This document shows positions 47,254 through 55,560 of a stretch of 64,000 bases of DNA, piece by piece. Each line of letters begins with the position of its first letter. Position 1 is the first letter of the stretch. The DNA is from Verrucomicrobiia bacterium (GTDB lineage: Bacteria; Verrucomicrobiota; Verrucomicrobiia; Limisphaerales; UBA1319), in contig OY760937.1 of NCBI GenBank assembly GCA_963664225.1, positions 3,840,001 through 3,904,000 of the forward strand, given 5' to 3'. The position numbers were made by a program, and so were the translations under genes. The notes under the pieces are model-generated. The model worked only from the letters and a program-made list of their open reading frames with translations, was not told the DNA's origin and did not search any database.

Positions 47254-47778
47254 CCAGTACAGACTTCAACGATTTTCCATATTTATCGAATGGCCCGTTC
47301 ACGCATGGCGTCCAATAGCCATCGTATGAACGGTGGGTTGGTCAATCGGTCCCATGGACCTTCAGAAAACGGATGCACTGGTGTCGCGCGGATTCTTCTG
47401 CGAAAGCGCCAGGACGCTTCCGTGTGTTCCGTTCTGCCAGAACGCCATAGCACGCATCCTTACGGCTGGCACACCCGGTTGACAGGCCAGATTTCCCGTT
47501 TTGCTCCCGCCACTCTGTCGTCCGGTCCAATCAGTTAAAACAGGCCTCATGCTTCCCCGGGGATTGAGGTAGGAATTCAAATTTCCCACATTTGGGCTCA
47601 AGAATGTCCATTTAACCCGAAATCCGAAATACGAATGGTCAAGATGATGCAATGCTTTGAGGCAGCCATGATTTGCAATCGGCGAGGGTGTATTAAATCA
47701 ATACTCCACAGCCGGTTTCAAACCATGGATGGCCAAATGATTGCGTCAGATGGGCCGTTCCTATTTCGGATTTCGGGT

Positions 47779-49754
47779 GTGCGCCAGTGAAATTGGTAGC
47801 CTCGTGGGTGAAAGTCCCGCCGGTCGAATTAGACGGTTCACGACCGAAATGCAGCGTCCGGGACGAGGCCGTGAGGCCGAACCACAAGCGGGACGCTGAA
47901 AGAACTGTCGGGTCGTAACGAAAGTAAACCTCATCAAATGAGCTCCGAAACCGAAATAACCGGTAAGCCGAGCCGCTACCCGAACGGCGAAGGCAGAAAC
48001 GCGGCGTCATCAAATCGTCAAATGGGCGCTGTTGATTCCGGCGGAGTCAGCGAGGGCGACACGACAGGAAGGGAAACCAAGGTAAGCTGGGAGATCTCTG
48101 GAGGCGGGGCGATAAAGCCTCAACCGCCGGTGCAAGGAGGAACACCCTCCGAGGCCGCACGGGCAGCCAGAGAAGTCGGAGTCTTCCATAGTAGCGAAGA
48201 AGCTGGGGCGACCAAAACCCCGGCGGAGCCAAGGGAAGGCACTTGGATCGAAGCGAATCAAAACAGCGAGGGACAGGGAGATGGCCTTGAGGGAGTGGAA
48301 ACACTTTTTCAACGGATAACAACCCCGATAAAAGTTCAAAAGCTGCAGCGAGCGCTATATTGCAAAGCCAAGGCTGAGCCGAAGTATCGGTTTTACAGCC
48401 TCTACGGAGAACTGCTGCGGAAGGACGTGCTGGAAACGGCAATGGCCTCCGTGGCGCACAACAATGGCGCGGCTGGGATCGACGGGCAGACATGCGACGT
48501 CTATCTTGCCAGCGACGAAGCCTGGGACCAATGGCGGAACCAACTGCTGGAGGAGTTACGCACGAAGAAGTATCGGCCAAGCCCGGTGAAGCGTGTGTAT
48601 ATACCAAAAGGAGACGGGAAGCTGCGACCCCTGGGCATCCCGACAGTGAAAGACCGGGTGGTGCAGACAGCGGTGGTGATTGTATTGCTGCCGATTCTGG
48701 AAGCCGATAGTCATCCGAACAGTTACGCCTATCATCCCAAACGCAATGCCCACCAAGCAATGGAGGCGATCAAGAAGGCTACGCTGACAGGACGCGTCGA
48801 AGTTATAGACGCGGACTTAAGCGGGTATTTTGACAGCATTCCCCACAGGCGTTTGTTGCGCATAGTGGCCAAGCGGGTCAGCGATGGAACAATTCTCAAG
48901 CTGATCGCAGGATGGCTGCGCGCGCCCGTGAATGAACCGCAAAGCGACACAGGGAAAGGCGGGACAAAGGGGGGGCAAGGTCAGAATCGACGGGGGACTC
49001 CGCAAGGCGGGGTTGTATCGCCGATTTTAGCCAATGCATACCTCAACCAGTTGGATTGGGAAGTCAACGAACGCTGCGAACTCAAACCCGTGATGGTGAG
49101 ATACGCGGATGATTTCGTGATACTCGGACAGCCGGGGCAGGGACGGGAACTGATGGAACGACTGGAACGATGGCTGAAGCAACGCGAGTTAGTGCTCAAC
49201 GAGAAGAAGACCCGCTTGGTGGACCTCCGCCAGGATGGCATCAAATTCTTGGGATTCGCGCTAACAATGCGACAGGGGAAGGGGAAATGGAAATATCCGC
49301 ATGTGGAACCCCATCCCAAGAGCCAGAAGAAGTTTCGAGACGGGATTCGGGAGAAACTCAACCGAAGCACGCTATGGCGTGATATCGGAGAGGTGATTCC
49401 CGAGCTCAACAAGAAACTCAAAGGTTGGAAGGGTTACTTTCACTACGGGAACAGCACCAAGGTGATGGGCCAGATGAACGAATACGTCAGCAGCAAGTTA
49501 CAACGATGGTTGTGGCGCAAACACGGATGTAGTCGGGCGCAATGGTCCACATACCCCAAGGAGGATCTCTATGAGCGTTATGGTTTATACCAAATGCCGG
49601 AATATGCGGCATGGAAACGATGACGTCGAAGCGATGCAACGTATGATCCCCGGAGAGCCGGATGCGGGAAAACCGCCTGTCCGGTTCGATGAGGGGCGAA
49701 ATGCGACGGTCATTGGCCACGGCCATTCAATCCGTCCATTTCGCCTACTCTACT
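47779..49754 (+). mobile_element. Group II intron (IIB-like), about 1976 nt
   Basis: 5' GTGCG; domain V GAGCCGGATGCGGGAAAACCGCCTGTCCGGTTC (49655-49687); 3' CCTACTCTAC(T); EBS1/EBS2 pair with the 5' exon. 3' end is 49753 or 49754. Confidence 0.93.
48295..49623 (+). CDS. ltrA: Group II intron reverse transcriptase/maturase without endonuclease domain
   Basis: RPLGIPTVKDRVVQ, DADLSGYFDSI, GTPQGGVVSP, RYADD, FLG, GWKGYF; start uncertain (in-frame GTG 48295 chosen). Confidence 0.93.
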   Translation: METLFQRITTPIKVQKLQRALYCKAKAEPKYRFYSLYGELLRKDVLETAMASVAHNNGAAGIDGQTCDVYLASDEAWDQWRNQLLEELRTKKYRPSPVKRVYIPKGDGKLRPLGIPTVKDRVVQTAVVIVLLPILEADSHPNSYAYHPKRNAHQAMEAIKKATLTGRVEVIDADLSGYFDSIPHRRLLRIVAKRVSDGTILKLIAGWLRAPVNEPQSDTGKGGTKGGQGQNRRGTPQGGVVSPILANAYLNQLDWEVNERCELKPVMVRYADDFVILGQPGQGRELMERLERWLKQRELVLNEKKTRLVDLRQDGIKFLGFALTMRQGKGKWKYPHVEPHPKSQKKFRDGIREKLNRSTLWRDIGEVIPELNKKLKGWKGYFHYGNSTKVMGQMNEYVSSKLQRWLWRKHGCSRAQWSTYPKEDLYERYGLYQMPEYAAWKR

Positions 49755-49917
49755 TAAGGCATTGGCAGGAAAGAAATTCATCGCCATGCTCATGATGAAG
49801 CCCGGAGATTCTTGAGAATGCATTTTTTGAATGCGGAAACGAATTTCCAGTTGCGCACCAGCGTCAATTCTGGTGGAAATGAGTAGAACAATGAACAATC
49901 AGATAATTAAGAATATT

Positions 49918-55486: not shown

Positions 55487-55560
55487 TGGCTGCCGAACAT
55501 GGATTTGAACCATGACAAACAGATCCAGAGTCTGTTGTGCTACCGTTACACCATTCGGCA
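55487..55560 (-). tRNA. tRNA-Gln(CTG)
   Basis: Minus strand TGCCGAATGGTGTAACGGTAGCACAACAGACTCTGGATCTGTTTGTCATGGTTCAAATCCATGTTCGGCAGCCA: 7-bp acceptor stem, anticodon arm ACAGA-CTCTGGA-TCTGT, T-loop TTCAAAT, encoded CCA. Confidence 0.97.

Follow-up and report, generated by a model that had tools for sequence, protein, structure and literature searches.

The window analysed here, a stretch of 64,000 nucleotides that forms part of the single-contig genome (5.78 Mb) of a Verrucomicrobiia bacterium, contains a complete group II intron of 1975 nt (47779-49753, forward strand) at the edge of a small non-coding transposon, a miniature inverted-repeat transposable element (MITE). We consider it very likely that this is an endonuclease-less, IIB-like mobile intron that has been retargeted to the junction at which the terminal repeat of an IS1380-family insertion sequence (IS) or MITE meets the first base of the 5-bp target-site duplication. 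This interpretation is carried by direct observations: the anatomy of the intron, nineteen identical copies in the genome, the target common to them, covariation between exon-binding site 1 (EBS1) and intron-binding site 1 (IBS1), restoration of the target-site duplication when the intron is removed, the missing endonuclease domain and the strand polarity of the copies.

Intron copies and their insertion sites

All nineteen full-length intron copies in the genome are 100% identical, and in 19/19 of them the 5' exon ends with TTCGGGT and the 3' exon starts with T(T/A)AA (TTAA or TAAA). In sequencing run X1 the depth of the intron contig was 462 compared to about 25 for the flanks, in agreement with nineteen copies. 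Thirteen copies are located at MITE ends (five at one end type, eight at the other) and four at the ends of an IS1380-family element (three and one). The other two occupy sites at which no more than the final 13-17 nt of a repeat end are left, followed by TAAA: one adjoins a truncated copy of an unrelated repeat family, and the other is found in unique sequence, where the closest long open reading frame (ORF; a crude proxy for a gene) upstream is 22 nt away. As chance alone would produce about 7e-4 identities of 17 nt in this genome, both are read as leftovers of element ends and not as unrelated ectopic sites. A first-pass annotation of the window had proposed that the intron parasitises a dispersed MITE or IS end, which is what this distribution supports for 17 of the 19 copies, with repeat-end remnants at the other two. 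A dispersed repeat family of about 150 nt was seen at G000:C1:3973869-3974268 (L005) and at about six other loci; the L005 copy is cut exactly where a MITE-end remnant and the intron begin (3974269).

The same annotation had recognised TATTTCGGATTTCGGGT as the end of the 5' exon (47762-47778) and its exact reverse complement at 47615-47631 as an unoccupied, perfect target on the other strand (17/17), and both descriptions were confirmed. In the window this 17-mer has two matches with up to three mismatches against 0.15 expected, and two or more were found in 0/100 shuffles. The genome-wide search that the annotation had suggested returned 39 exact occurrences. Among 27 elements with 54 ends in total, 17 were filled at one end, none at both, and ten were empty. 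The repeat is not unique, a related IS is present, no intron copy was assigned to an unrelated site, and the proposed exon-binding loops were not found misplaced.

The MITE copies differ from each other (94-100% identity) while the intron copies are identical, so that the intron must have arrived after the MITEs, in a burst more recent than their spread. That the intron spread as DNA, through homologous recombination or gene conversion among MITEs or through segmental duplication, and not by retrohoming, seems to us scarcely plausible. The MITEs would indeed offer 162 bp of homology on the 5' side, but on the 3' side only T(T/A)AA is shared, so that there is no second homology arm. The use of both MITE end types, of both IS ends and of MITE variants of 94-100% identity looks like the outcome of independent insertions, and the polarity described below would not be expected from gene conversion.

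Strand polarity of the insertions

For this part of the analysis the replication origin was taken at dnaA (2.99 Mb) and the terminus at a local peak of the cumulative GC skew (1.4 Mb), both of which are inferred positions. Eighteen of the nineteen intron copies, including both copies at remnant sites, are co-oriented with the inferred fork, i.e. located in the lagging-strand template; with the sense strand co-oriented with the fork, the intron RNA would therefore have entered the lagging-strand template. Sixteen co-oriented ends were filled and 11 empty, compared to one filled and 26 empty among the opposite ends (Fisher p = 1.5e-5). When only ends with an intact IBS1 were counted, these figures became 16 and 8 against 1 and 24 (p = 3e-6), and all three co-oriented ends whose IBS1 is mutated or truncated were empty.

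Along the chromosome, plus-strand copies occupy 0.05-0.95 Mb (five), minus-strand copies 1.66-2.19 Mb (six) and plus-strand copies again 2.99-5.61 Mb (eight), so that the orientation switches at 0.95-1.66 Mb and at 2.19-2.99 Mb. If orientations were random, nineteen copies on a circle would show no more than two switches with a probability of about 7e-4. Long ORFs have a strand bias that is for the most part negative between 1.2 and 3.2 Mb and for the most part positive in the rest of the chromosome, in agreement with the inferred origin and terminus, and the intron does not track its neighbouring genes (same strand upstream in 8/19 and downstream in 10/19, by the crude ORF proxy). Since both MITE end types are used, the end that is filled follows the position in the chromosome, and the choice of end is consistent with fork direction. 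The empty left repeat in the window likewise fits the replication-strand rule.

The polarity could also have been shaped after insertion, if the intron inserted with no strand preference and head-on or transcription-disturbing copies were subsequently lost by selection. Only the end state is observed, and the favourable ends are incompletely filled (16/24 of those with an intact IBS1), both of which would be compatible with such a course. The 19 copies are, on the other hand, 100% identical, which leaves little time for selective loss; no fragment of the intron was found at any opposite-strand end, and the orientation of the copies is not that of the neighbouring genes. In addition, the protein lacks an endonuclease, and for RmInt1 and RmInt2 a bias of insertion towards the lagging-strand template has been measured directly, as stated in passages of PMC4615759. 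We regard loss by selection as improbable.

Recognition of the target

The EBS1 that the first-pass annotation had placed in a loop closed by GCCG/CGGC coincides with a variable hairpin loop of the Rfam domain I model, and the local hairpin was also predicted by folding. Complementarity of this loop to the final 7-8 nt of the intron's own 5' exon was found in 6/6 distinct related introns, whose exons differ: the present one, four on contigs where the protein is 76-77% identical, and an ORF-less derivative. This lends direct covariation support to the assignment of EBS1 and IBS1. For EBS2 the annotation had named CCGAAATA; its position, which the Rfam alignment leaves unpaired, and its 8/8 pairing with IBS2 held, while covariation in the relatives did not support it. 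At other sites the EBS2 pairing amounts to 7/8 and 6/8 at the two IS ends and to 7/8 and 5/8 at the remnant sites. A candidate for EBS3 was found at position 48049: within the first 520 nt, no other column has A in the six introns with T at +1 and T in the one with A at +1 (L022).

The nearest relatives of the intron (L018-L022) are located on metagenome-assembled contigs and are 76-77% identical to it in the protein and 82-87% identical in the first 508 nt. They share with it the RNA architecture, the endonuclease-less protein, the CTCTAC end and the position of the EBS1 loop, but have EBS1 loops and 5' exons of their own. No transposase matches were found in the flanks of L020, L021 and L007, and the L020 intron has a SpoIIE-domain gene on one side and a CBM9-domain gene on the other. 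Because the examined flanks are not transposon ends, the targeting of transposons is specific to the present intron and, as the annotation had proposed, a property of its exon-binding sequences. L007 (G034:C102, reverse strand, about 1306-2002) is a 697-nt ORF-less derivative in which domains I-III are joined to V/VI; its EBS1 loop still fits its own 5' exon, and its host is a relative from the same order.

Group IIC introns, which insert at terminator and attC hairpins, use a short IBS1 and are not known to have an EBS2. In a similar manner, the present intron could recognise the single-stranded DNA hairpin formed by the palindromic MITE and insert past its base, sequence pairing being secondary. 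The MITE stem does end at GGG, one base before the insertion point, and its fold is stable (-89.5 kcal/mol, z = -9.6). However, 4/10 of the IS1380 ends are filled though the partner repeat is 1.5 kb away, the two filled remnant sites have no partner repeat, and the pairings of EBS1 (7 bp) and EBS2 (8 bp) fall inside the stem arm. Ends with a mutated IBS1 are empty as well, and recognition of the hairpin is, in our opinion, very improbable.

Intron boundaries and the order of insertion

The intron starts with GTGCG and ends with CTCTAC, and thus agrees with the boundary consensus of group II introns both at the 5' end (GUGYG) and at the 3' end (AY, here AC). Its 3' end was placed at 49753 on three grounds. 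The Rfam model RF00029 stops at this position, with AC aligned to the consensus AY; the CTCTAC end is common to five related introns whatever base comes next (CTCTGC in the ORF-less L007); and deletion of 1975 nt brings back the 5-bp target-site duplication in 16/17 of the occupied elements, compared to 0/17 when 1976 nt are deleted. The annotation had the start of the intron right and its end one base too far downstream (49754). It follows that the intron separates the first base of the right duplication from the second (GGG-T/TTAA, the slash marking the insertion point) and has its insertion point one base beyond the end of the transposon. For the spliced junction ...TTCGGGT/TTAAGG is predicted; its 5' side is as previously proposed, while the 3' side had been given as TAAGG. 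None of the contigs of four sequencing runs joins 47778 to 49754, as an empty-site allele or a spliced form would, which is not evidence of their absence. Among 24 runs listed, six are recorded as RNA, and these contained 0.05-0.07 of the sampled words.

The transposon itself had been described as a non-coding element of about 170 bp with an inverted repeat of about 27 bp and TTAA at both ends. The element and its flanking repeat were retrieved, with other dimensions: the MITE is 162 bp long, its inverted-repeat arms extend over 45 nt with 80% complementarity, and the flanking repeat is the 5-bp duplication TTTAA (47611-47615 on the left, 47778 plus 49754-49757 on the right). The suggestion that the intron might hitch-hike with the MITE is unlikely to hold, as an intron outside the element would not be carried along when the MITE transposes. 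Disabling of the MITE by the intron, which had been put forward as well, would be conceivable if the transposase needs a flanking TTAA in the manner of piggyBac.

These boundaries also bear on the order of events. The reverse order, in which the IS1380 element or MITE would have inserted preferentially beside the 5' end of pre-existing introns, could draw on the strong target preference of the transposon and on the T(T/A)AA that always follows the intron. It is nevertheless hardly credible: the intron interrupts the duplication, and its removal restores it in 16/17 cases. Furthermore, ten elements have no intron but no intron copy has less than 13 nt of a repeat end, both EBS1 and EBS2 of the intron are complementary to the repeat, and the MITE copies are more diverged than the intron copies.

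The host transposons

The MITE family comprises 19 full-length and three interrupted copies in this genome, with 94-100% identity, plus three fragments. Compared with its reverse complement, the element shows about 74% identity. An autonomous IS with similar terminal repeats, which the first-pass annotation had recommended looking for, was found in a 1532-bp IS1380-family element with five identical copies (e.g. L001 101-1632). Its transposase of 473 residues matches NF033539 with 227 bits (cut-off 180) and PF13701 (DDE_Tnp_1_4) at 2.3e-27. The termini of this element (CCCGAACTCCGA.../...TCGGAGTTCGGG) are closely similar to those of the MITE, agreeing at 13/16 terminal nt (read by eye), and the target preference is the same. 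Among the 27 elements the duplication is TTTAA in 14 and TTAAA in eight, other pentamers being single cases. Perfect 5-bp duplications were present in 5/5 IS copies (four after intron removal, one directly) and in 18/22 MITE copies, the occupied ones again counted after intron removal; among the ten empty elements seven had perfect duplications. Based on the similar termini and the shared 5-bp duplications, the small element is a MITE that plausibly depends on the IS1380 transposase for its mobilisation.

In the ISfinder description, elements of the IS1380 family have terminal inverted repeats that begin with CC and a target-site duplication of 4-5 bp. The piggyBac transposons are characterised by CCC/GGG ends and a TTAA-centred target. 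The CCC/GGG ends and TTAA-centred target seen here fit a relationship with piggyBac, of which IS1380-like elements are described as the prokaryotic counterparts in a passage of PMC5718144.

Two nested composites of the form MITE[IS1380[...]+intron] were observed (G000:C1:828002-831675, L002, and G000:C1:2984655-2988328). The two agree in the site of the IS, a central TTAAA of the MITE, and in its orientation relative to the MITE; the intron occupies opposite IS ends, and each composite has a 5-bp duplication of its own (TTGAG and TTTAA). Either the whole MITE::IS unit has transposed or the MITE centre is a hotspot for the IS. Another MITE copy (G000:C1:264554-266580, L003) is broken by a different IS, which encodes an IS1634-family transposase of 545 residues (NF033559, 328.6 bits). 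In G003, a genome from the same family and another genus, there are 20 matches to an 86%-identical relative of the IS1380 element (e.g. L104 and L106), and neither the intron nor the MITE was found there. A search of 20 relatives, whose genomes are 75-98% complete, did not yield the MITE in any of them.

The intron-encoded protein

The ORF of the intron, situated in domain IV, matches TIGR04416 with 356 bits (cut-off 300), and its protein matches group II intron reverse transcriptases in the PDB with E = 8e-53. In a frame of 561 residues, RVT_1 (1.8e-34) covers residues 222-441 and GIIM (1e-13) residues 464-536. The frame stops 25 residues past GIIM, and no DNA-binding or endonuclease region was detected in the protein by domain search. 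The earlier description of the intron as endonuclease-minus was thus correct, as only reverse transcriptase (RT) and X domains were recovered. Among the matches listed, all of which lie below 60% identity, the best homologues on named plasmids are no more than 42% identical to the intron protein.

The start codon of the protein is probably the GTG at 48295. The RT frame is open from 47938, its upstream part being devoid of a coding signature, and it is open for 125-160 codons upstream in 6/6 relatives as well. A long N-terminal extension was rejected as coding sequence: variable sites are evenly distributed over the codon phases there (36/35/35), compared to 132/80/315 inside the RT ORF. There is no conserved ATG for the RT frame nearby, the candidate starts being GTG at 48295 here and TTG, ATG or only CTG in the relatives. 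A Shine-Dalgarno-like GGAG with an ATG (window position 48281; region 48276-48320) is conserved here and in five relatives, out of the RT frame, and this ATG opens a frame of 12-13 codons that closes at a conserved TAA. The sequence GGAGATGGCC from this region is also kept in the ORF-less L007, and for this reason it may be an RNA structure at the base of domain IV.

Proposed mechanism and points that weigh against it

The following course of events would account for the observations. With a transposase that strongly prefers TT(T/A)AA, each integrated end would present ...TTCGGG-T/T(T/A)AA, once per strand. The intron RNA and its protein would locate this junction of repeat end and duplication by base pairing with the DNA, EBS1 with positions -7 to -1, EBS2 (CCGAAATA) with TATTTCGG at -17 to -10 and, probably, EBS3 with the T at +1. 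The RNA would then reverse-splice into the single-stranded lagging-strand template at the replication fork, with the nascent lagging-strand DNA used as primer, and only the element end whose target is on the lagging-strand template would be filled. The chemistry of splicing, reverse splicing and priming is one that we infer by analogy with RmInt1 and RmInt2 (PMC5894124 and PMC4615759); a lagging-strand polarity is the expected signature of endonuclease-less retrohoming.

Several observations weigh against parts of this scheme. With respect to replication, the lone exceptional copy (G000 2986270, plus strand) is located 4 kb from dnaA, on what is the wrong-strand side under the assigned origin. 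Between 1.8 and 3.6 Mb the GC skew stays flat, origin and terminus are deduced positions, and the implied replichores are very unequal (about 4.2 and 1.6 Mb); the cumulative GC skew moreover rises over the whole chromosome, with a net plus-strand G excess of +116,285. The exceptional copy falls inside the uncertainty of the origin position. With respect to the target, eight co-oriented ends remain empty despite an intact IBS1, so that occupancy is unsaturated, and a very stable MITE hairpin would sequester the target and would need to be opened for pairing. With respect to the RNA, no clear IBS2 complement to the EBS2 candidate was found in the 5' exons of L018, L020, L021, L022 and L007, and the EBS3 proposal rests on one covarying sequence. 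Finally, the minimum-free-energy fold of domain I alone was no better than that of shuffled sequences (z = -1.07); consequently, the structural placement relies on the Rfam model, and the fold was used for the local EBS1 hairpin only.

Excision of the piggyBac type depends on the flanking TTAA. A further-reaching and speculative idea, which we judge unlikely as a whole, would see in the intron a specialised hyperparasite of integrated piggyBac-like (IS1380-family) transposons. It would read a junction made by transposition (the repeat end and the first base of TT(T/A)AA), might immobilise the element end by displacing the flanking TTAA and could so act as a brake on a MITE/IS burst, while the strand choice at 27 two-sided targets would record the direction of the fork, with strongly unequal replichores.

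Features of the region

The coordinates of the features are collected in Table 1. No sigma-70-like promoter was found inside the MITE by scanning, and the three sites across the region are within chance expectation (1.5 +/- 1.2). A metagenome contig, X6, spans 47481 to 49823 with 176 other letters in between and flanks that are about 90% identical; it is probably, on weak evidence, a relative without MITE and intron at the same locus. The sole further Rfam match in the window is an ordinary tRNA gene (55490-55560, reverse strand; RF00005, 64.2 bits).

The genome also contains another group II intron family, unrelated to the first, whose four copies measure about 2 kb and show 99-100% identity to each other and only 76% identity to the present intron over 119 nt of the RT region. 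The orientation of its copies fits the inferred fork in 2/4 cases and follows no strand rule. A 1.28-kb repeat with at least ten copies of 98-100% identity lies beside this second family, in what is a repeat-rich genome.

Table 1. Features of the intron, its host MITE and their surroundings (window positions, except for the last row).
Feature	Position	Strand	Details
Rhomboid-domain gene, upstream neighbour	ends 47253	+	
Left target-site duplication, TTTAA	47611..47615	.	Equals T (47778) + TTAA (49754-49757) after intron removal
Unoccupied left-repeat target	47615..47631	-	17/17 match plus T/TAAA; inferred leading-strand template here
MITE	47616..47777	.	162 bp, CCC...GGG termini; non-coding, imperfect palindrome throughout
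Occupied 5'-exon target	47762..47778	+	The right duplication begins with its last base, T (47778)
IBS1, linker, IBS2	within 47762..47778	+	IBS1 TTCGGGT at -7..-1; linker AT at -9,-8; IBS2 TATTTCGG at -17..-10
Group II intron	47779..49753	+	
Domain I core	47811..48056	+	Rfam RF02005 group-II-D1D4-6, 54.9 bits (gathering score 49), E = 1e-12
Candidate EBS2, CCGAAATA	47951..47958	+	Internal loop 5' of EBS1 hairpin; 8/8 complementary to IBS2
EBS1, ACCCGAA	47978..47984	+	9-nt terminal loop, hairpin GCCG/CGGC; 7/7 complementary to IBS1
Candidate EBS3 (A)	48049	+	Proposed pairing with T at +1; single covariation event
Intron protein	48295..49623	+	RT about 48601-49260; maturase/X about 49327-49545
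Domains V and VI	49653..49753	+	Rfam RF00029, 49.3 bits (cut-off 40)
Domain V	49655-49687	+	AGC triad 49656-49658 (Rfam alignment)
Bulged branch-point A, domain VI	49747	+	Rfam alignment
3' exon start, TTAA	49754..49757	.	Remainder (4 nt) of the right target-site duplication
F5/8 type C domain gene, downstream neighbour	starts 49831	+	
Second intron family, four copies	about 1676532-1678500, 2329485-2331485, 5161411-5163379, 5604127-5606107	+, -, +, -	Genome positions

Significance

The principle seen here has already been established experimentally, and the present case adds an example and not a new mechanism. It is of value mainly as a well-controlled set of natural data on how endonuclease-less introns choose a strand: 27 transposons offer the same target on both strands, 17 of them are filled and never on both sides, which makes for an unusually clean natural experiment. 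The strategy of RmInt2 and ISRm17, in which both inverted repeats are used, is extended to another transposon family and to non-autonomous MITEs, and the target seen here spans the junction of transposon and target-site duplication. The intron orientations also provide an independent read-out of replication direction where GC skew is uninformative. From a practical point of view, 19 identical introns of 2 kb, 22 MITEs and five IS copies probably serve as substrates of recombination and pose a hazard to genome assembly.

Comparison with known systems

No literature combining group II introns, MITEs and retrohoming was found in a search that omitted most subscription journals. Group IIC introns resemble the present intron in being endonuclease-less and in inserting directly 3' of a palindromic stem, probably in single-stranded DNA; their insertion after terminator or attC hairpins is the subject of the abstract of PMC7923331. 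The present intron differs from them by its long EBS1 and EBS2 pairings in the stem arm and by filling IS ends that have no partner repeat nearby.

RmInt1 of S. meliloti homes into ISRm2011-2, an IS of the IS630 family, and its retrohoming at the replication fork shows a lagging-strand bias (PMC5894124, passages on this intron). It shares with the intron described here the missing endonuclease, a natural target in a multicopy IS, the fork-associated retrohoming with its bias towards the lagging strand and occasional non-canonical sites. The target of RmInt1 lies within the IS, and inverted repeats are not mentioned in the passages of PMC5894124 that deal with it. These passages also state that RmInt1 limits the spread of ISRm2011-2 by blocking the element, whereas the element and its terminal repeats stay intact in our case.

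RmInt2 of S. meliloti GR4 has been reported only within the inverted repeats of ISRm17, both of which are targeted; seven identical copies are present, and a bias in lagging orientation was measured (PMC4615759, in the sections concerned). Like the present intron it has no endonuclease and uses both inverted repeats of an IS, so that one target is always on the lagging-strand template. Both introns have identical copies in the genome, which points to recent spread, and a bias towards the lagging-strand template, and in both of them IBS1 and IBS2 are separated by a 2-nt linker (-9, -8) and mismatches in IBS2 are tolerated, as far as RmInt2 is covered by these sections of PMC4615759. They differ in their targets, which are here mainly a MITE (13 copies) and its IS1380-family relative (four), and in the insertion point, located one base outside the element and in the duplication here and within the inverted repeats in the case of the RmInt2 copies described. 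There are 19 copies here compared to seven of RmInt2, and the bias was deduced from genome positions in the present case and from an assay in that of RmInt2. Bacterial group II intron ORF classes, D, E and F among them, are described in a passage of PMC3552965. Papers in which the Rfam D1D4 models are mentioned do not assign these models to classes. RmInt1 and RmInt2 belong to ORF class D, and the present intron is likened to them by its behaviour and not by protein phylogeny.

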